From: Candidatus Eiseniibacteriota bacterium
Lineage (GTDB): Bacteria; Eisenbacteria; RBG-16-71-46
Reading direction: 5' to 3'
NCBI GenBank assembly: GCA_038231135.1
Contig: JBBRLX010000006.1
Coordinates: 1 to 64,000, forward strand
Length of the DNA: 64,000 nucleotides
The notes beneath the pieces were generated by a model. That model was not told where the DNA came from, ran no database searches, and saw only the letters and a program-made list of their open reading frames with translations. Below, piece after piece: positions 26,605 to 46,087 of this stretch. A program made the translations under genes and the position numbers. How positions within the stretch are numbered: the first letter of the stretch is position 1; every line of letters starts with the position of its first letter.

Positions 26605-27857
26605 CCCACACGACGCTGCAGGGCGCTCTCGAAGCGCTCTATGGACTCGAACGACGCCAGGGGAAGCTGGGCCTCGACGGCACGCGCAAGCTGCTGGCGG
26701 CGCTCGGCAGCCCCGAACGGACATTTCGCGCCGTGCACGTGGCCGGCACGAACGGCAAGGGCTCGACCTGCGCCCGCATCGAGCGGGCGCTGCGGCTGTC
26801 GGGCGTGCGCACCGGCCTGTTCACCTCGCCGCACCTGGTGGAGTTTCGCGAGCGCATCCGCGTGAACGGCCGCTGGGCCGACTCCGCCGGGCTGCATGCG
26901 ATGCTCGAGCGCATCGCCGTGCTGCCGGAGGCCGCGGACCGCACGTTCTTCGAAGTGGCGACCGCGCTCGGGTTCGGCTGGTTCGCCGAGCAGCACGTGG
27001 AGTGGGCGGTCGTCGAGGTCGGGCTCGGCGGCCGGCTCGACACCACGAACGTGCTCGAGCCCGCCGTGTGCGCGATCACCCGCATCGGCCTCGATCACAC
27101 GGAGCTCCTGGGCGACACGCTCGAGGCGATCGCCGCCGAGAAGGCCGGGATCGTGAAACCGGGCGTGCCGGTCGTCGTCGCGCCCGACGTGGACGCGCGG
27201 TCCCGCGCCGTGATCGTGGCGATCGCGGCGGAGCGCGGCGCCCCGGTGATCGAGCCCGAGGCCCTCGGGACTGCCGCCGCGGGGGACGGCGGCCACTCCG
27301 GTGCCGTGGGTGCCGCCTACCAGGACGCCAACGCCGCGACGGCGCGCGCGGTGCTGCACGTGCTGTCCGGGCTCGGCGTGAACGTGACGCCGCGCGCGTT
27401 GTGCGAGGGGCTCTCGCACACCCGCTGGCCGGGACGCTTCGAGCAGGCGCCCGGCGAGCCGCGCCTGTGGTGGGACGGCGCCCACAACGCCGACGGCATG
27501 GGGGCGCTCGAGCAGTCGTGGCGCGCGGCGTCGCTGCCGGAGCCGGCCGCCCTGGTGCTGGCGCTGTCGCGGGACAAGGATCTCGACGCCGTGATCGCCG
27601 TGCTGAGCCGGTTCGCCGGGAGCGCGGAGGTGGTTGCCACGCGATCCCACAGCGAGCGGGCGCTCGACCCGGAACGGATCGCGACCGCGGCCCGGGCGGC
27701 CGGCATGCGCGCGCGCGTGGCGGACGATGTGGCGGCCGCCTGCCGCGCCGCGGTCGCGGCCACCGCGCCCGGCGGCCTGGTATTGCTCACCGGCTCGCTG
27801 TTCGCCGTGGGCGAGGCGATGCAGGCGTTCGGTGGCGCGCCGGGAGAACTGCTGTGA
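26601..27857 (+). CDS. folC: Folylpolyglutamate/dihydrofolate synthase
   Basis: HVAGTNGKGS, FTSPHL, EVGLGGRLDTTN, WPGRFE, DGAHN, TGSLF. Confidence 0.95.
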
Positions 27858-30800
27858 GGCGCGTGTGGCTGGCGCTGGCGATCGCGATCGCCAGCGCGGC
27901 GGGCGCCGCGGGCGCGGCGCCGGCCGTTCCAGCGGCGCCGACGCCCTGGCCGATCGAGGTCACGCCGATCGTGCCGTCGAGGGTCACGCAGCCCTCGGAT
28001 ACGGCCGGAGCGGCGGCGCGGCACCAGGCGGCGGCCACGAGCCGCGCGTCCGACGCCGGCAGGTCCATCGCACCCACTGCGGGCGCCGGCGCGCACGATG
28101 GCGCCGAACCTGCCAACCGCACACCCGCGCCGCCGGGGTTCGGCGCCGCGTTCGACAGCACCCGCGGCTCCCACCCGGGGACGCCGGGCACCGCGATCGT
28201 CGTGGCACGCGACTCCGGAGCGGTGGTGCCCCCGGCCGCGGCGGGCATCGGCACGCCGCCGCGCGCCGTGCGGCCGCCGGCGTCGGCACCGGCGCGGCCG
28301 GCCGGACCCACGCCGCCGCTCAACATCGCCGCCGACAACGTCACCGGCAGCCACGGGCCCGAAGGCGACGTGATTCTGCTCAACGGCAACGTGCGGATCA
28401 CCCGCATGCGGAGCGTGATCACCTCCGACCACGGCCGCTACCTGCGCAGCGAGGGCATGCTGTACCTGGAACAGAACGTGAAGCTGGTCGACAGCACCAC
28501 CACGATGACGTGCAACCAGGCCTCCTACTCCGAGAACGACGACATGCTCCGCCTGCAGGGCAACGTCGTGGTCACCGACCACGACGCCACGCTGCGGGCG
28601 CCGTGGGCCACCTACGATCGCCGCATCGGGCGGGCCGAGCTGTTCGGCGGCGTCGACGCGCACGACAAGCACGAGACGATGCGCGCCGACAGCGCGCTCT
28701 ACCTGCGGGACTCGTTGCTGCTCAAGGCCCGCGGCCACGTGCGCGGCATCGACAAGGACAACAAGCTGGAACTCACCGCCCGCGCCGTCGACTGGGATCG
28801 CGACGCCCGGGACGCGATCGCGTGGGGCGATCCCCAGCTCGTGTCGCACGAGGACCAGGGCCACGACACCGTGATCCGCGCGCGCACGCTGCGCGTGAAC
28901 ACCGACACGCGCGTGGCCGAGGCGGTGGACTCGGTCACGATCGTGCGCGACACGCTGCAGGCCCGCGCCGACTACGGGCAGTTCGACGATCTCGCGAACT
29001 ACGCGATCCTCACCGGCCACCCGCGCGCCTGGGACCAGGAGACGGTGGTGACGGGCGACACGCTCGAGATGTGGACGGACGGCCATCACCTGCAGCGCGT
29101 GGTCGTGGAGCGCAACGCGGTGATGGACTACGCCGGCCGGGAGCCGCTGACACTGGGCGAGAAGAGCCGGCTCAGCGGCGACCAGGTGACCGTGTACTTC
29201 ACCGACGACGACATCGACAGCCTGGTGTCGGTCGGCAAGGCGCACAACGACTACACGGCCGTGCCGCGGCCCGGGAAGGCGTCCGAGACGAATCTCGCCC
29301 AGGGCGACACGATCACCGTGTTCTTCCTCAAGCGGAAGATCGATCGCGCCCGGGTGGAGGGCAAGGCGTCGGGCGAGTACCAGTTCGCCGTCGCGAAGGG
29401 GGACACCGCCGCCGCGGCCGACGAGCGCGTGCGCTACGACGCCCGCACCATCGAGTACCAGGTGTCGCGCAACCGCATCGTGCTCGACCCCGGGGCCCAT
29501 CTCACGTATCGCGATCTGGAGCTGACCGCGCGCCGCGTGGAGTTCGACCTCAACCGCCAGACGCTGGTCGCGGAGGGCAAGCCGGAACTGGTCGAGCACG
29601 GCGACAAGGTGACCGGCAACCTGATGACGTACGACCTCGAATCGCGCGTCGGCAACATCTACAAGGCCGAGACCGAATACGAGGCGGGGCTGTATCACGG
29701 CGAGCGGATCCGGAAGGTGAGCGACAAGGAACTGGACGTGATGAACGGCTCCTACAGCACCTGCAATCTGCCGGAGCCGCACTATCACTTCGCGTCGCGC
29801 TGGATGAAGATCTATCTCAAGGACAAGCTGGTCGCGAAGCCGGTGGTGTTCTACGTCAAGCACGTGCCGCTGCTGGCGCTGCCGTTCTGGGTGTTCCCGC
29901 TCAAGCCCGGCCGGCACTCCGGATTCATGCTGCCGACGTTCCAGCTCGGCTTCAGCAATCGCGCCGGCCAGTTCTTCCGGAACGCCGGCTACTACTGGGC
30001 GCCGAACGACTACATGGATCTGACGGTGGACGGCGACTACTACGCGGCCGAGCCGTCCTGGGTGGTCCGCACCGAGGGCAATTACAAGCTGATGTACGTG
30101 CTCGACGGCACGTTCAACGGCAGCTTCGCGCGTGACGAGGGCATCAAGACCGAGAACTGGGACTTCGACGCCGACCACACCCAGGAGCTGACCCCGCGCT
30201 CCCGGCTCGTGGCGCGGGCGTCGTTCGTGTCGAGCCGCGACTACAACTCGAGCAACCTGTTCGGGCGCTCGCTGTCGCAGCGCCTCAACCGGTTCCTCAC
30301 GTCGAGCGTCGCGATCAGCCACAACGCGGACTGGGCGAGCTTCAACAACTTCGTCGAGCGGCGCCAGGATCTCGACGCCGATCTCGAGCTCGACGATCCC
30401 GACGGCGCGGGGCCGGGCCGGTCGAAGCCGGTGGGCACCCGCGCGTCGCAGTTCAATCTCACCGAGAGCCTGCCGAGCCTCGACATGTCGTTCCCGACGC
30501 GCACCGCGGGCTCGCTCGGGTTCCTGCGCGGCACCCCGTTCGAGAAGGCGCTCAGCACGATGTATCTCAGCATGTCGGCGCGGTTCCTGTCGCTGCACAC
30601 CCAGCGCGCGTTCGTCGAGGCCCGGCTGCCCACCGCCGCCGACACCACTCAGGATTCGCTGCTGGTGCTCGGCCAGGAGCAGAACACGCGGCGCGGGTTC
30701 CAGACCGACGCGTCGGTGTCCGACGCGCGGCGCGCGTTCGGCTGGCTGAATCTGCGGCCGTCGCTGAACACGTCGGTGGCGGTGTTCGACCACGACCGGC

Positions 30801-31744
30801 TGGGGAACAAGCTGGTGCCGACGGGGGTGTGGTCGGCGGGCATGAACGCGAGCGCGTCGTTCTACGGCACGTTCACGCCGCACCTGGGTGCGCTCGACGC
30901 GTTCCGTCACGTGGTGTTCCCCAGCGTGACGCTGCAGTACAGCCCGGATTTCAAGAACCTGCTGATCGCGGGCCCGAACGGCACCGAGCAGGAGCGGTTC
31001 GAGAGCTTCGGCGGCATCGGCGTGTCGGGCGCCAAGCAGTTCCAGCTCGCGCTCGGACTCGACCAGCGGCTGCAGGTGAAGCTCCGCCACAAGGACCAGA
31101 TCACGCGCATCGACAACCTGCTGGCGTGGAGCATGTCGAGCAACTACGACTTCCTGTGGGCGGAGCACGGGGCCAGGCACCCGCTGACTCCGATCGGCTC
31201 GGCGGTCACGTTCCAGCCGCCCAAGTACTTCAACGCTTCGATGAACTTCACCACCGACCCCTACAACGGCCGCCCGCTGCGGTCGCTCACGTACTACCTG
31301 GGCCTCAATCTGTCGAGCAGTGGCGCGCGGCGCGACGATGCGCCCGGCCTCGCGGTCGAGCGCAGCTCGAACGAGGTCGAGGCGTTCCACGACAACTGGA
31401 ACGTGGGGCTCACGTATTCCTATTCCGGCGGCTACCCCGGCGACCTGCCCGGCAAGGCGAGCCCGTTGTGGACGACGACGCGCAACGCGAACGCCGTGAC
31501 GAGCTATCAGTTCAGTCCGGCGTGGGGCGTCGAGTATTCGGCGTCGTTCGACCTCACCCTGCGGCAGATCGGCACGCAGCGGTTCTCGCTCACCCGCGAT
31601 CTGCATTGCTGGGAGGCGACGTTCTCGCGCACGTTCACAGCGGGCGGCGAGGCCGAGTACTACTTCCGGCTCGGCGTGAAGGAGCAGAAGGAGATCTACA
31701 TCGAGCGCGGCACGCGCTCGGGCAGCCTGGGCGGGATCCAGTGA
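27854..31744 (+). CDS. lptD: LPS-assembly protein LptD-like, with an extended N-terminal OstA/LptA-like region
   Basis: Signal peptide, low-complexity linker, repeated beta-strand OstA-like units, YSTC..PEPHYHF, SGFMLP, RNAGYYWA, RDLHCWE near the C-terminus. Confidence 0.82.
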   Translation: MRRVWLALAIAIASAAGAAGAAPAVPAAPTPWPIEVTPIVPSRVTQPSDTAGAAARHQAAATSRASDAGRSIAPTAGAGAHDGAEPANRTPAPPGFGAAFDSTRGSHPGTPGTAIVVARDSGAVVPPAAAGIGTPPRAVRPPASAPARPAGPTPPLNIAADNVTGSHGPEGDVILLNGNVRITRMRSVITSDHGRYLRSEGMLYLEQNVKLVDSTTTMTCNQASYSENDDMLRLQGNVVVTDHDATLRAPWATYDRRIGRAELFGGVDAHDKHETMRADSALYLRDSLLLKARGHVRGIDKDNKLELTARAVDWDRDARDAIAWGDPQLVSHEDQGHDTVIRARTLRVNTDTRVAEAVDSVTIVRDTLQARADYGQFDDLANYAILTGHPRAWDQETVVTGDTLEMWTDGHHLQRVVVERNAVMDYAGREPLTLGEKSRLSGDQVTVYFTDDDIDSLVSVGKAHNDYTAVPRPGKASETNLAQGDTITVFFLKRKIDRARVEGKASGEYQFAVAKGDTAAAADERVRYDARTIEYQVSRNRIVLDPGAHLTYRDLELTARRVEFDLNRQTLVAEGKPELVEHGDKVTGNLMTYDLESRVGNIYKAETEYEAGLYHGERIRKVSDKELDVMNGSYSTCNLPEPHYHFASRWMKIYLKDKLVAKPVVFYVKHVPLLALPFWVFPLKPGRHSGFMLPTFQLGFSNRAGQFFRNAGYYWAPNDYMDLTVDGDYYAAEPSWVVRTEGNYKLMYVLDGTFNGSFARDEGIKTENWDFDADHTQELTPRSRLVARASFVSSRDYNSSNLFGRSLSQRLNRFLTSSVAISHNADWASFNNFVERRQDLDADLELDDPDGAGPGRSKPVGTRASQFNLTESLPSLDMSFPTRTAGSLGFLRGTPFEKALSTMYLSMSARFLSLHTQRAFVEARLPTAADTTQDSLLVLGQEQNTRRGFQTDASVSDARRAFGWLNLRPSLNTSVAVFDHDRLGNKLVPTGVWSAGMNASASFYGTFTPHLGALDAFRHVVFPSVTLQYSPDFKNLLIAGPNGTEQERFESFGGIGVSGAKQFQLALGLDQRLQVKLRHKDQITRIDNLLAWSMSSNYDFLWAEHGARHPLTPIGSAVTFQPPKYFNASMNFTTDPYNGRPLRSLTYYLGLNLSSSGARRDDAPGLAVERSSNEVEAFHDNWNVGLTYSYSGGYPGDLPGKASPLWTTTRNANAVTSYQFSPAWGVEYSASFDLTLRQIGTQRFSLTRDLHCWEATFSRTFTAGGEAEYYFRLGVKEQKEIYIERGTRSGSLGGIQ

Positions 31745-32382: not shown

Positions 32383-33197
32383 GCCAGTCCCCACTCCTCC
32401 AGGTCGTCCTCGTCGAGCCCCAGCAGATGGCCGACCTCGTGCTGCACGGTCACGCGCACCTCCTTCTGCAGCTCCTCGCGCGAATGACACACGCGCAGCA
32501 GGTTGCGCCGGAACAGGTAGATCGCGCCGGGACCGCTCGCCACGTCCTGGGTGGTGCGGCTCATCAGGTCGCGCCCCACGAACAATCCGAGGATGTCGGG
32601 CGGCAGCGGCGGATTCTCGGAGGTCAGTACGTCGAGCAGCGGCAGCGGCTGCACCAGCACCGGGAATTCGTCGAGGTGCTTGCGGACCTGCGGCGGCAAC
32701 TCGGCCAGGCTGTCCTCCACGAGCTGGTCGAACTCCGCGTCGGTGTACTCCAGCGCCGGCGGGAAGTTCTCGGGGTCGAGGTCGTGGGCCTCCTCCGCGT
32801 GTTCCGCCGCGCCGCCCGCGTCGCCGAGGTGCTCGAGCGTGCGCGACAGCAGATCGTGCGCGTCGGCGAACTCGGGGCGCACGGCGAGCGACCGCTCCGC
32901 GTCGTCCCGCGCGGACTCGAGCTTGCACAGGTCGAACTCGGCGCTGGCGCGCAGGTGGAAGAACAGCGCGGGATCCGCAGACATCTCGGCGCCATCGAGC
33001 GCCGCGAGCGCCAGCGTGGGCTCGCCCTCCTCGAGCGCGATCGCCGCATCCACGATGCGCACGTCGGCGTGCCGCGCCCGCGCCCGGAACCGCATCTTGA
33101 GCTCGCGCCGGGCGGCCTCGGCGTCGCCGTTCTCGAGCAGGTCCCAGATCTTGCTCAGCTCGTCCCAGTCCGTCTCGGACAGTGTCTCGAAGTGCAC
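32379..33197 (-). CDS. TPR plus zincin-like metallopeptidase protein
   Basis: TPR-like N-terminus; ILGLFVG, IYLFRRNL, HEVGHLLGLDE. Confidence 0.85.
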   Translation of the reverse strand: MHFETLSETDWDELSKIWDLLENGDAEAARRELKMRFRARARHADVRIVDAAIALEEGEPTLALAALDGAEMSADPALFFHLRASAEFDLCKLESARDDAERSLAVRPEFADAHDLLSRTLEHLGDAGGAAEHAEEAHDLDPENFPPALEYTDAEFDQLVEDSLAELPPQVRKHLDEFPVLVQPLPLLDVLTSENPPLPPDILGLFVGRDLMSRTTQDVASGPGAIYLFRRNLLRVCHSREELQKEVRVTVQHEVGHLLGLDEDDLEEWGLA

Positions 33198-33441
33198 GCG
33201 CGCTCCCGAATTCCGTTTCGCGGCCGACCTGTGGCGCCTGGCAACCGCGCCGGACCACTGGTCGCGAGACTACGCTCGGGGGTTGGGCGGCGGCAATCGC
33301 GGGCCCGGACGGCGCCCGGCGCGCCGACGCCGCGCGTGGGCGCCCGATCCGAAACTACCGGGTCGAAGCTGCCGACGGTCCGGGTGGCTGTCAGCGATTC
33401 CGCAACTTGCGCAGCGCCCCAACCCGGGCCGGGGACGGCTC

Positions 33442-33470
33442 TTGCGCTTCGATCGGCGTCCCCGTAGACT
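33442..33470 (+). promoter_or_regulatory. Putative sigma70 promoter of the selenoprotein gene
   Basis: TTGCGC-N17-TAGACT ending 44 nt upstream of ATG 33515. Confidence 0.5.
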
Positions 33471-33514
33471 CCCCGCAGGCTGGTCTGCAGAGTCCCAACG
33501 TCACCGGAGATTCC

Positions 33515-34939
33515 ATGAAGTCTCTTACCACCCGAATTCTTGCTGCTGCCGTGGTCGCCGTCGTGAGCTGGCTCGTGCTCGCCTCCGCCGCCGCGCCCCA
33601 CTCGCTACAGCCGAACAAACTGGTCATCCTCTCGACAACGGACGTCAAGGGCAAGACCAGCCCCTGTGGCTGACACACGCCCAAGGGGGGTCTGGCCCGG
33701 CGGGCCAGTTTCGCAGACAGCGTAAAGCTCCAGTACAGCAACGTGCTGCTGGTCGATGCCGGAGGGTTCTTCCCCGAAGGCGCCACCGAGTACGACGTGG
33801 CGTGGTTCATGATGGACGCCATGAAGCTGCTCGGCACCGACGGCGTCGGCGTGGGTGAGCGCGACCTCAAGTACGGGCTCGCGTGGCTCAAGGGGCAGCA
33901 GAAGCGCACCGGACTCCCGATCGTGTCGGCGAACCTGCTCGACAAGAAGACCGGCAGGCCGGTGTTCGCGCCGTTCGTGATCAAGCGGGTCGGCACCGCG
34001 AAGGTGGGCATCTTCGGGCTGATCAGTGACAAGGTCGACCTCGGGCCGGCGCGGGATTCGCTCACCGCCCAGGACCCGATGGTGGCGGCGAAGAAGGCGA
34101 TCGCCGACATGCACAAGGCCGGGGCGACGGTGATCGTGCTGCTGTCCCAGCTGGGCAAGGTCGAGAGCGAGGACCTCGTCACTGCGGTGGACGGCGTCGA
34201 CGTTGTGATCGCGGGCCGCAACGTGCCGCTGATCCAGAAGGGCCGGCTGATCAAGAACACGGTCGTGGCGTACGGCGGCGAGCAGGGCCAGTACGTCGGC
34301 CGCACGATCATCACGCTCGGGCCCGGCGGCAAGGCGACGGCCGGGGACGACGACATGTTCATCCTGAGCCCCGAAGTCGGCGAGAAGCCCGAAGTGCTCG
34401 CGCTGGTCAAGAGCTTCGAGGACGCCTACAACGAGAAGCTGCGCAAGGGCCAGATGGATTCCGAGGCGTCGAAGGCGGTGGCGCAGGAGAACAATCCCGA
34501 CCGCTACCTCGGAGCCGAGTTGTGCACGCGCTGCCATTCGTCCGAAGGTGAACAGTGGAAGACCACCGCGCATTCGCTGGCGTGGCAGACGCTGGTGAAC
34601 GTGAAGAAGGACGCGACGCCCGAGTGCATCGGCTGCCATTCGGTCGGCTTCAACAAGTCGGGCGGCTTCACGAGCGCGACGGCGACGCCGCACCTCGAGA
34701 ACGTGCAGTGCGAGAACTGCCACGGCATCGGCACCCAGCACGACTCGTTCGCGGCCACGCCGCACCCGGTGACGGCCGAGGTGTGCCAGACCTGCCACCA
34801 TGGCGATAACGATCCCGACTTCAACTTTGCGAAGTACCTGCCGAAGATCGCGCACAGCAACCTGTCCGGCGAGACGATCAAGAACATGAAGAACAAGATG
34901 TCGCCGGGAATGATGAAGGGGAGCGGCGGCACGAACTGA
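33515..34939 (+). CDS. Putative selenoprotein: UshA/5'-nucleotidase-like domain with a CGU motif fused to a tetraheme cytochrome c domain
   Basis: GGAG ribosome-binding site, ATG and signal peptide; single in-frame TGA at codon 53 (SPCG-U-HTPKGGLARRA); frame stays open to 34939; CTRCH, CIGCH, CENCH, CQTCH. Confidence 0.85.
33692..33708 (+). promoter_or_regulatory. Candidate bacterial SECIS hairpin
   Basis: CTGGCCC-GGC-GGGCCAG perfect 7-bp stem with a G-first loop 25 nt downstream of the UGA. Confidence 0.65.
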
Positions 34940-34998: not shown

Positions 34999-36390
34999 TT
35001 GACGAACGTGCTCGAGGGTGTTCGGTACTTCGAGAACATCCTGCAGACCGTCGGCAACACGCCGCTCGTCCGCCTGCGCAACGTGGCGCGGGACTGCCCA
35101 TGCCCGGTGCTCGCCAAGCTCGAATACTTCAATCCCGGCGGCAGCGTGAAGGACCGGATCGGGCTCGCGATGGTCGAGGCCGCGGAGCGCGACGGCAATC
35201 TCAAGCCCGGCGGGACGATCGTCGAGTGCACGTCGGGCAACACCGGCCTCGGGCTCGCGATGGTGGCGTCGGTGCGGGGCTACCACGCGGTGTTCTGCAT
35301 GCCGGACAAGGTGTCGAGCGAGAAGGTGAACCTGCTCAAGGCGTTCGGCGCCGAGGTGCTGCTGAGTCCCACCGCCGTCGAGCCCGACTCGCCCGAATCC
35401 TACTATTCGGTCGCGCGCCGCATCGCCGCCGAGCGGCCGGGCGCCTACCTCACGAACCAGTACCACAACCCGGCGAACCCGCTGGCGCACTACCTCACCA
35501 CGGGACCCGAGTTGTGGCAGCAGACCGCGGGGCACATCACGCACTTCGTCGCCGGCATGGGCACGGGCGGCACGATCAGCGGCACCAGCCGCTATCTCAA
35601 GGAGCAGAATCCGCAGGTCCAGACCATCGGCGCCGATCCCGTCGGCTCGATCCTCAAGCACTACCACGAGACGAAACAGCTCAGCGAAGCGCACACCTAC
35701 AAGATCGAAGGCGTGGGCGAGGACTTCATCCCGAGCGCGACCGATTTCTCGGTGGTGGACCGCGTGGTGGCGTGCAACGACCGCAACGGGCTCAACATGG
35801 CGCGCACGCTGGCGCGCGAGGAGGCGATCTTCGTCGGCGGCTCGGGCGGCATGGCCACGTGGGTCGCGATCGAGGTGGCGAAGGCGCTGCCGGCCGACAG
35901 CCTGGTCGTGGTGCTGCTGCCCGACACCGGCGAGCGCTACCTGAGCAAGGTGCACAACGACGAGTGGATGCGCGACAACCATCTGCTCGACCCGACCGCC
36001 GCTTCGGCGGGGCAGATCGTCGACACCAAGAAGCGCAAGATCCCGAATCTTCTGTCGGTGCCGTCCGGCGCGTCGCTCAAGCAGGCGCTGGCGCTGGTCG
36101 AACAGCACGAGATCAGCCAGATCCCGGTCGTCGACGGCGACACGGTGATCGGCACGCTCGAGGAGAGCGACATCCTCAAGCTGGCGATGTCCGATCGCGC
36201 CGCGCTCGATCGTCCGGTGAACGCGTGGATGAAGCCGCCGCTGCCGATGGTGAACGCGGACGAGCACGTCGACCAGGTCACGCGGCTGCTGGTGCGGGAG
36301 CCGGCGGTGCTCGTGAAACGCGAAGGCCGTGTGGTCGGCATCCTGACGCGCTACGACATGCTGCAGTTCATCGCCGGAGGCGAGGGATGA
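34999..36390 (+). CDS. Cystathionine beta-synthase (PLP domain plus CBS pair)
   Basis: GNTPLV, NPGGSVKDR, TSGNTG, GMGTGGT, PDTGERYLSK, C-terminal CBS domains; TTG start. Confidence 0.92.
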   Translation: MTNVLEGVRYFENILQTVGNTPLVRLRNVARDCPCPVLAKLEYFNPGGSVKDRIGLAMVEAAERDGNLKPGGTIVECTSGNTGLGLAMVASVRGYHAVFCMPDKVSSEKVNLLKAFGAEVLLSPTAVEPDSPESYYSVARRIAAERPGAYLTNQYHNPANPLAHYLTTGPELWQQTAGHITHFVAGMGTGGTISGTSRYLKEQNPQVQTIGADPVGSILKHYHETKQLSEAHTYKIEGVGEDFIPSATDFSVVDRVVACNDRNGLNMARTLAREEAIFVGGSGGMATWVAIEVAKALPADSLVVVLLPDTGERYLSKVHNDEWMRDNHLLDPTAASAGQIVDTKKRKIPNLLSVPSGASLKQALALVEQHEISQIPVVDGDTVIGTLEESDILKLAMSDRAALDRPVNAWMKPPLPMVNADEHVDQVTRLLVREPAVLVKREGRVVGILTRYDMLQFIAGGEG

Positions 36391-37559
36391 CCGACGACGC
36401 GCTCACCCCCACGTCGGGCTTTTCCACGCGCGCCGTGCACGCGGGGCAGATGCCCGATCCCACCACGGGCGCCGTGGTGGTGCCGATCTACCAGACGTCA
36501 ACGTATGCCCAGGAGGCGCTGGGCAAGAACACGGGCTTCGAGTACGCGCGCACCCACAACGCGACCCGGTCCGCGCTCGAGGGCAACCTGGCGTCGCTCG
36601 AAGGCGGCCGCCACGGGCTGTGCTTCGCGTCGGGACTCGCCGCCACCACCACCCTGATGCACACGCTGTCGGCGGGCGACCACGTGATCGCCGGCGACAA
36701 TCTCTACGGCGGCACCTACCGGCTGTTCGAGCGCGTGTTCCGCAGGTTCGGCCTCACGTTTACGTACGTGAGCGGCACCGACAGCGCCGAGATCGAGCGC
36801 GCGTTCACGCCCGAGACGAAGCTGGTGTTCGTCGAGACGCCGACGAACCCGATGATGCGGCTCGTCGATCTGGCCGCGGTGAGCGAGGCCGCGCACCGGC
36901 GCCAGGCGCTGGTGGCCGTCGACAACACGTTCATGACCCCGTATTTCCAGCGTCCGCTCGAATTCGGCGCGGACGTGGTGCTGCACTCGGTCACCAAGTA
37001 CCTCAATGGCCACAGCGACATGGTGGGGGGGGCTCTGGTGACGAGCCACGAGGAGCTGGCGACGCAGCTGCGGTTCCTCCAGAACGCGGCGGGGTCGGTG
37101 CCGGGGCCCATGGACTGCTGGCTGGCGCTGCGCGGCACGAAGACGCTGGCGCTCCGCATGGAGCGGCACAACTCGAACGCCATCGCGCTGGCACGCTCGC
37201 TGGCCGCGCACCCGGGCGTCCAGCGCGTGTTCTATCCGGGGCTCGACAGTCACCCCCAGCACGAGCTGGCGAAGCGGCAAGCCAGCGGATTCGGCGGCAT
37301 GATCTCGTTCGTCCCGGGGGACGGATCCCTCGAGACCGGCCGCCGGGTGTTCGACCGGTTCCGGCTGTTCACCCGCGCCGAGAGCCTGGGCGGTGTCGAG
37401 AGCCTGGTGTGCCACCCGGCGTCGATGACGCACGCCTCCGTGCCCCGCGACCACCGGCTCGCCATGGGATTCGCCGACGGGCTGCTGCGGCTGTCCGTGG
37501 GGATCGAGGACCTCGATGATCTGCGCGCGGACCTCGCGCAGGCGCTCCAGGAAGGATAA
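36387..37559 (+). CDS. Cystathionine gamma-lyase/synthase
   Basis: PIYQTST, YAR..N.TR, ETPTNP, DNTF, HSVTKYLNGHSD, ESLGGVESL. Confidence 0.93.
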   Translation: MTDDALTPTSGFSTRAVHAGQMPDPTTGAVVVPIYQTSTYAQEALGKNTGFEYARTHNATRSALEGNLASLEGGRHGLCFASGLAATTTLMHTLSAGDHVIAGDNLYGGTYRLFERVFRRFGLTFTYVSGTDSAEIERAFTPETKLVFVETPTNPMMRLVDLAAVSEAAHRRQALVAVDNTFMTPYFQRPLEFGADVVLHSVTKYLNGHSDMVGGALVTSHEELATQLRFLQNAAGSVPGPMDCWLALRGTKTLALRMERHNSNAIALARSLAAHPGVQRVFYPGLDSHPQHELAKRQASGFGGMISFVPGDGSLETGRRVFDRFRLFTRAESLGGVESLVCHPASMTHASVPRDHRLAMGFADGLLRLSVGIEDLDDLRADLAQALQEG

Positions 37560-44766: not shown

Positions 44767-44869
44767 AGTGCGCGGTCGAGCAGGCCGCGGCTCGCCGCCC
44801 GCGCGCCGGCATTTCGAAGGTAACGCATCATGGGGCGCCGGACGTGGCACCCCGCTCTCCGGAGGTACG

Positions 44870-46087
44870 ATGCATCGCGCCATACGTGCCGTCGTGCTGC
44901 TGCTCCTCGTCGCTCCGCTGGCCTCGCTATTCGGCTCGCGTGCCGCGCACACCCTGCCGCTCTACGCCGCGCGCACTGGCTACATGTGCCAGCAGTGCCA
45001 TTTCGATCCCAACGGCGGCGGGCCCCGCAACGACTTCGGGTTCATGTTCGCGCGCAACCGCCACAGCACGGATGCCGACACCACGGGCGCGTGGAAGGAT
45101 CTCAACCTCACGAACAGGATCGGCGACACCATGCCGGTCTACTTCGGCGTCAATCAGCGGTTCATGCTGCTGACGGGCACCTCGACCCACTCCGACTCGC
45201 TCGATCGGTTCGCGTTCTTCGGCATGGAGAACAGCCTCCACATCACGTTCCAGCCCCACGAGAAGCTCACGCTCGTATACAGCCGGGATGCGTTCGCGAT
45301 CGACGCCTCGAACGCCAGCGTCGAGCAGAAGGAGGCGTTCGGCATCCTCCACTTCAACGACACTCATTACGTGAAGATCGGCCGGTTCCGCAATCCGTTC
45401 GGCCTGCGCATGGACGACCACACGGTGGCGACGCGCAACGGGTTCCTCGACCTGAGCAGTGGCCAGGGGTTCCTGCCGTACGATCCGCGATATCCGGACA
45501 TGGGTGTCGAGGTCGGCGGCGCGCGCGGGCCGTTCTTCGGCCGAGTCGCGTTCACGAACGGCCATGCGAACTTCTCGAACGGGTTCGCGGAGACCAAGGC
45601 CATCAAGCTCGGCTACAACAGCTCGTTCTATCAGGGCGGCGTGTCGTTCTACGACGAATATCAGAAGGTGCCGGTGACCAACCTGAAACGTTCGACGCGC
45701 TGGGGCTACTACGCGCTCGGCCACCATGGCCCGGTCGCGCTGGTCGGCGAGATCGCGGCGGGCACGGACGAGGCGTTGCCGGTGCTGCCCGGCGCCGTGA
45801 CGGGAGCGAAGACCAACCTGCTCGCCGGATTCGCCGAGCTCGACTGGGCGGCCGGCCGCTCGGTGAACTTCCGGGCGCGCTACGACTACCTGAACCCCGA
45901 TCGCAGCAGCATCCAGGTGATCCGGGACCTGAACTCGCACCAGCGCTACGCGCTCGAGAGCGAGTGGGTGCCGGTGCCGTTCGCGGAACTGCGGTTCGCG
46001 GTGCGCCGCATCCAACACCAGGACGAGGCCGCGTTCGGCTTCAAGGACGAGACGCAGTTCTTCACCCAGGCGCACTTCTCGTACTGA
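44870..46087 (+). CDS. Monoheme cytochrome c-outer-membrane beta-barrel fusion (Cyc2-like architecture)
   Basis: GGAGG ribosome-binding site, signal peptide, LPLYAARTGYMCQQCH, alternating aromatic beta-strands, terminal QAHFSY. Confidence 0.75.
   Translation: MHRAIRAVVLLLLVAPLASLFGSRAAHTLPLYAARTGYMCQQCHFDPNGGGPRNDFGFMFARNRHSTDADTTGAWKDLNLTNRIGDTMPVYFGVNQRFMLLTGTSTHSDSLDRFAFFGMENSLHITFQPHEKLTLVYSRDAFAIDASNASVEQKEAFGILHFNDTHYVKIGRFRNPFGLRMDDHTVATRNGFLDLSSGQGFLPYDPRYPDMGVEVGGARGPFFGRVAFTNGHANFSNGFAETKAIKLGYNSSFYQGGVSFYDEYQKVPVTNLKRSTRWGYYALGHHGPVALVGEIAAGTDEALPVLPGAVTGAKTNLLAGFAELDWAAGRSVNFRARYDYLNPDRSSIQVIRDLNSHQRYALESEWVPVPFAELRFAVRRIQHQDEAAFGFKDETQFFTQAHFSY

Follow-up and report, generated by a model that had tools for sequence, protein, structure and literature searches.

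The window analyzed here is a 64,000-nt stretch (contig JBBRLX010000006.1) of a Candidatus Eiseniibacteriota genome that is 93% complete. It contains a forward-strand gene that the list of open reading frames breaks into two pieces, 33182-33673 and 33743-34939, both in one frame, as described in an earlier note on this DNA. Read from the ATG at 33515, which the same note had correctly placed behind a ribosome-binding site, and through an in-frame TGA, the frame extends to the TGA at 34937-34939. The resulting protein has the claimed 474 aa, with four CxxCH motifs across 34523-34798. Its N-terminus has, by eye, the traits of a signal peptide (basic start, hydrophobic run, AxA). The gene and its surroundings are organized as follows.

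27854..31744, + strand: LptD, conserved upstream neighbor (profile match, locus comparison)
33506..33509, + strand: GGAG, resembling a ribosome-binding site, 5 nt upstream of the ATG at 33515 (from the sequence)
33515..34939, + strand: whole gene, 474 aa with selenocysteine read-through, NF041198 UshA-like (seleno)protein (translation, family profile score)
33515..33595, + strand: predicted signal peptide, approximately residues 1-27 (by eye)
33608..34447, + strand: 5'-nucleotidase N-terminal (metallophosphoesterase) fold and linker helix, dimetal ligands lost (structure match, alignment)
33665..33673, + strand: TGT GGC TGA, Cys51-Gly52-Sec53, the last very likely selenocysteine (sequence, homolog alignment)
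33692..33708, + strand: SECIS-like hairpin with a 7-bp stem and a GGC loop 25 nt after the UGA (fold, synonymous-site covariation)
34493..34858, + strand: cytochrome c554-like tetraheme domain with His353, His409 and His447 as its only distal His (alignment, structure match)
34999..36390, + strand: cystathionine beta-synthase (cbs), 59 nt downstream, conserved neighbor in the class (profile match, locus comparison)
36387..37559, + strand: cystathionine gamma-lyase/synthase family gene (cgl), conserved neighbor (profile match, locus comparison)

Probable recoding of the in-frame TGA

Codon 53 (TGA, 33671-33673) lies in frame within the segment SPCG-U-HTPKGGLARRA and is very likely read as selenocysteine (Sec), since a conserved Cys-Gly-TGA motif coincides with a covarying hairpin and with all four selenocysteine genes in the genome. 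TGA is the commonest stop here, closing 587 of 870 long coding-like open reading frames genome-wide, and recoding at codon 53 would thus be site-specific, as the earlier note had argued from the window. The aligned codon is TGA in all 30 best loci (the window's genome and 29 others) and TGC or TGT in four tandem paralogs. A sample of 80 loci from many phyla yielded 71 motif hits with TGA (33), TGC (23) or TGT (15), one of the Cys hits looking spurious. Among the 63 aligned homologs that cover the site, Cys51 is found in 61 and Cys53 in 62, in agreement with the statement in the note that relatives carry Cys at the Sec position. RNA contigs from two independent libraries of relatives span the codon (five in X19, two in X20) and show no difference there among those listed, which argues against a sequencing slip. 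Many library homologs begin only at residue 58-100, the kind of mis-annotation by gene callers that had been anticipated.

The genome encodes selA, selB, selD and a tRNA-Sec (selC) with a UCA anticodon, all above cut-off; selD, itself a Cys form (G000:C31:7989-9183), adjoins the tRNA gene. Within the class to which the genome belongs (61 genomes, probably Ca. Eisenbacteria), selA is found in 57. On a midpoint-rooted tree of 82 sequences the Cys copies are interspersed among the Sec copies, which suggests that Sec has repeatedly changed to Cys in this family.

Bacterial SECIS elements are hairpins located just 3' of the UGA with a G early in the loop. The hairpin in the window fits this placement and has a G in its loop. 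When copies with identical ARRA residues are compared, 68 of 78 TGA copies retain the loop G and both pairs at synonymous sites, versus 2 of 10 Cys copies; the copies are related and not independent, and the p-value of this contrast is therefore overstated. One pair swaps between G-C (47 copies) and C-G (20 copies). It is extremely improbable that the TGA really ends translation, or is erroneous, and that the gene is split or dead. The hairpin's folding energy, which is not significantly better than that of shuffles (z -1.0 to +0.05), speaks for such a reading; the conservation of TGA across loci, the kept synonymous pairs and the Sec machinery contradict it. So does G009, a relative that lacks a selA match at 94% completeness and whose best copy encodes Cys, although TGA persists in two others lacking a selA match at 84% and 86% completeness.

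A crude genome scan for further Sec genes gave noisy output. The genome encodes a likely second selenoprotein, a peroxiredoxin-like protein with an in-frame TGA (TPG-U) followed by a long hairpin (G000:C4:182652, + strand; L177).

A nucleotidase fold joined to a tetraheme domain

The alignment-based model of the full protein is confident (pLDDT 94.8, pTM 0.91) and contains two domains. In this predicted structure the N-terminal domain matches the 5'-nucleotidase 2z1a (Z 34.9, rmsd 2.4, 280 aligned residues) and SoxB (Z 33.0, rmsd 2.6, 276 aligned), which bears out the UshA/5'-nucleotidase fold assigned in the earlier note. The resemblance to UshA/CD73 and SoxB covers the N-terminal fold and the linker helix (Z 33-35, rmsd 2.1-2.7), whereas the dimetal ligands are lost and the substrate-binding C-domain is replaced by the tetraheme domain. 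Instead of the ligand set DxH, GD, GNH, H and GHxH, the window's protein has DxK, GG (DAGG), GER (GERD), Q (SQ) and GRNV; across 246 family sequences, GNH is found in none and DxH in four. A residual Asp84/His212/His235 triad is kept by 27 of 37 Sec copies at other Eisenbacteria-like loci and by 13 of 22 elsewhere, versus 0 of 34 in the own family of the window's genome (grouping by locus is approximate), and the protein studied here has Gly84, Gln212 and Arg235. The conserved job in this lineage thus does not need that metal. The invariant core consists of Cys51, Cys/Sec53, the twelve heme-binding residues and the distal His353, His409 and His447. Animal 5'-nucleotidases also have a Cys in the loop that carries Cys-x-Sec here. 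Many Sec members retain D43, D84, E115, H212 and H235, which could bind a single metal next to the CxU loop.

The C-terminal domain contains CxxCH motifs at 34523, 34625, 34709 and 34784-34798, all invariant among aligned homologs, and matches cytochrome c554 both in structure (Z 11.2, rmsd 2.8, 126 aligned) and in sequence (E 5.6e-14), so that the tetraheme cytochrome c domain proposed before is upheld. The c554 of Nitrosomonas europaea (1bvb) likewise has four hemes and three distal His, and the alignment matches motifs 1-3 and the distal His of WxxTAH, but the heme domain of the window's protein is shorter and is fused to a Cys-x-Sec domain. With three distal His for four hemes, one heme site is likely open, without a His distal ligand, and is predicted to be heme 2, where we infer the same openness as in c554. 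The conserved P434 and F436, part of an S/D-P-x-F motif after heme 4, presumably line the open-heme pocket as they do in c554. A single-sequence model of the heme domain alone reaches a pLDDT of 32, too low to be of use. Close to the heme-2 motif, a handful of residues coincide with the beginning of the nucleotidase C-domain, in the open as well as the closed structure, an overlap too slight to build on. Genes for heme-c assembly and for a heme-copper oxidase are present in the genome. Eight of 97 homologs have Cys in place of the last distal His (position 447), which may point to a His/Cys heme variant.

A coupling analysis of the 246 sequences recovered pairs within domains, including covariation among positions 84, 115, 212 and 235, and gave no credible inter-domain pair above noise. 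The N-terminal domain can stand alone, since heme-less Cys paralogs exist; these are located in tandem with the Sec copy in five loci (L038, L042, L056, L058, L062). One heme-less copy (L103) retains the TGA. The window's genome also encodes a Cys paralog (CGC) with four hemes, located behind some 500 residues without a Pfam match (G000:C9:96414-99344, - strand; L053), which scores 244 bits against NF041198, below the cut-off.

Family record, neighbors and fusions

The whole protein scores 285.2 against NF041198 (UshA-like (seleno)protein; curated cut-off 275). Model positions 2-269 and 353-518 are matched, the latter by 34352-34828 of the window, and thus both domains, and the PCG-U/C motif lies inside the 5'-nucleotidase-like N-domain. 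The protein is therefore a real member of a selenoprotein family that has already been catalogued, and its fusion to a heme domain is not new, because the curated model already spans it. A 2008 publication lists the family as 'COG0737 UshA-like, CxU', counting 76 Sec and 92 Cys members, and sequences in the supplement share the PCGU...GG motif with the window's protein (PMC2398784, supplements), so that the mention of reported UshA-like selenoproteins in the earlier note holds. It is also tabulated in passages of PMC9312934 and PMC13188914. The passages covered from these three sources mention neither a function nor hemes, and no function was found in the literature searched, which covered few subscription papers and, of PMC2398784, the supplements. 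The window's protein adds to this family, whose function was not found in print, a member from a lineage that has lost the residual metal site kept by many others.

The nearest named relatives are from Ca. Eisenbacteria (61-63% identity). Strong copies (best E <= 1e-50) are encoded by 58 of the 61 genomes of the class, the remaining three being less than 90% complete, and the family counts 831 representatives at E <= 1e-30. In a second phylum, sampled with 151 genomes centered on a Planctomycetota record, 92 genomes have matches.

The gene is followed by cbs in 23 of the 30 top loci (1.5-kb flanks). In a set of 20 loci from other families, 11 have cbs and 17 have lptD; in 80 loci across many phyla these numbers are 4 and 14, respectively, and the neighborhood may therefore be inherited gene order. 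A near-universal copy beside lptD in the class resembles a housekeeping gene. Outside the class, the neighbors are mostly unrelated housekeeping genes. Elsewhere in the window, 44768-46087 (+ strand) encodes a protein that looks exported and has a single CxxCH close to the N-terminus and then, by eye, a probable beta-barrel; no Pfam hit was found for it at 1e-4.

Fusions and neighbors of DsbA-like or DUF1573 type are more telling than the cbs/lptD context. Of 19 long homologs scanned, six weakly match a DsbA-like domain (E 2e-7 to 7e-5), whereas four contain a fused DUF1573 domain. Four of the five fused DsbA-like domains that were read show only CPxG or CPFA, with one Cys and not CxxC. Among 120 loci, 12 have a DUF1573 gene, in most cases immediately upstream and on the same strand; the records are from Nitrospirota, Planctomycetota and Armatimonadota. 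A CxC motif is encoded by 11 of the 12, and one matches the OS_HP2 (seleno)protein family. A passage of PMC13188914 names DUF1573 among selenoprotein families. The window's genome has no DUF1573 match. In one Planctomycetota record (L143:2154-7251), a DUF1573 gene and a Cys family member directly follow hydrazine synthase alpha.

Proposed function and alternative readings

We propose that this exported UshA-like selenoprotein is a periplasmic thiol-disulfide oxidoreductase, in which electrons pass between the Cys-x-Sec pair and the four-heme chain, and give this reading a probability of about 0.55. The nucleotidase fold would serve as a scaffold presenting Cys51 and Sec53, which would cycle between a reduced state and a selenenylsulfide against thiols or disulfides of partner proteins (DsbA-like, DUF1573 or envelope). 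Electrons would enter or leave at heme 2, which like that of c554 probably has no His as distal ligand, and the remaining hemes would link to respiratory cytochromes; this wiring of CxU to heme is one that we infer. We lean toward oxidation of partner thiols as the direction. The reading is based on the conservation of Cys51 and Cys53, the four invariant CxxCH motifs with three distal His, the near-complete loss of GNH and DxH, the confident two-domain model with its c554 match, the DsbA-like and DUF1573 fusions and the DUF1573 neighbors, the copy in nearly all class genomes, the heme-c assembly genes and heme-copper oxidase, and the distribution of DsbB (0 of 61 class genomes) and VKOR (9 of 61). 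Against it stand the one-Cys DsbA-like motifs, the heme-less paralogs, the lack of inter-domain coupling, the missing DUF1573 match in the genome, its own VKOR-DsbA fusion and the trend in the second phylum.

In that phylum we found no mutual exclusion with DsbB/VKOR: one or the other is present in 28 of 92 carriers of the family and in 10 of the 59 genomes without it (Fisher p 0.08), a direction opposite to a replacement of DsbB/VKOR. With a stricter threshold, the numbers are 25 of 84 and 13 of 67, respectively. Carriers from other lineages (50 of 64 chosen genomes, after 14 near-duplicate lineages were dropped) encode DsbB in 4 and VKOR in 17 of the 50, figures that have no baseline. In the class itself DsbB has no match and VKOR is scarce, as given above, though lptD widely adjoins the UshA-like selenoprotein gene. 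A bolder and rather doubtful extension of the oxidoreductase reading is that the protein forms a third route to periplasmic disulfides, as a soluble selenium-heme thiol oxidase of DsbA-like partners that passes electrons from Cys-x-Sec to c-type hemes in phyla mostly without DsbB/VKOR.

The main rival, itself tentative and clearly less probable than the oxidoreductase reading, is a sulfane-sulfur enzyme convergent with MccSep/ExtKL (NF040886), the polysulfide reductase of Geobacter sulfurreducens: Cys51 would ligate heme 2 or lie beside it, Sec53 would attack a polysulfide or persulfide and the sulfur would come from the CBS/CGL neighbors. MccSep reduces periplasmic polysulfide with a His/Cys heme 2, its catalytic heme, and Sec (PMC13510729). 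Both proteins are periplasmic multiheme c proteins with Sec (predicted for the window's protein) whose annotation is split at the UGA, and the fold in common with SoxB and the frequent cbs gene downstream (23 of 30 top loci, 11 of 20 from other families) fit as well. The architecture differs, however: MccSep has five hemes, one of them His/Cys-ligated, and carries Sec on a C-terminal Ig-like domain, in contrast to the four CxxCH motifs and Sec53 here, and NF040886 is not among the profile hits of the window's protein. The cbs gene, which may be inherited gene order, is found in only 4 of 80 loci across phyla, and the genome encodes a heme-copper oxidase.

Two other readings are weaker than the sulfane-sulfur one. 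It is unlikely that the open heme 2 serves to detoxify a small oxidant (peroxide, NO or hydroxylamine), with Cys-x-Sec as reductant entry or protective switch. One heme without a His distal ligand, the reactivity of related scaffolds with nitrite and hydroxylamine (OcwA, in the passage covered) and TlpA/peroxiredoxin-like neighbors in 5 of 120 loci speak for it, but the alignment offers no catalytic His, Arg or Tyr conserved on the distal side, S/D-P-x-F being what follows heme 4. Less likely still is a retained phosphoesterase or other hydrolase in which Cys-x-Sec forms a structural or regulatory bond and the hemes act as a sensor: the 5'-nucleotidase fold (Z 34.9), the Cys in the same loop of animal 5'-nucleotidases and the triad kept by many Sec members outside the own family would suit such an enzyme, yet Gly84, Gln212 and Arg235 replace the triad here, none of the 34 Sec copies of the own family has it and the catalytic GNH motif is missing in all 246 sequences.

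For the class, the gene call mends a systematically split annotation of a nearly universal gene. It belongs to a broad family (831 representatives, 92 of 151 second-phylum genomes) for which no function was found in the literature searched, and whose natural Cys versions offer easy expression and testing. If its thiol chemistry is coupled to the hemes, as the oxidoreductase reading holds, the protein would join MccSep as a second Sec-heme enzyme, one built independently, and could account for the handling of envelope disulfides in bacteria without DsbB or VKOR.
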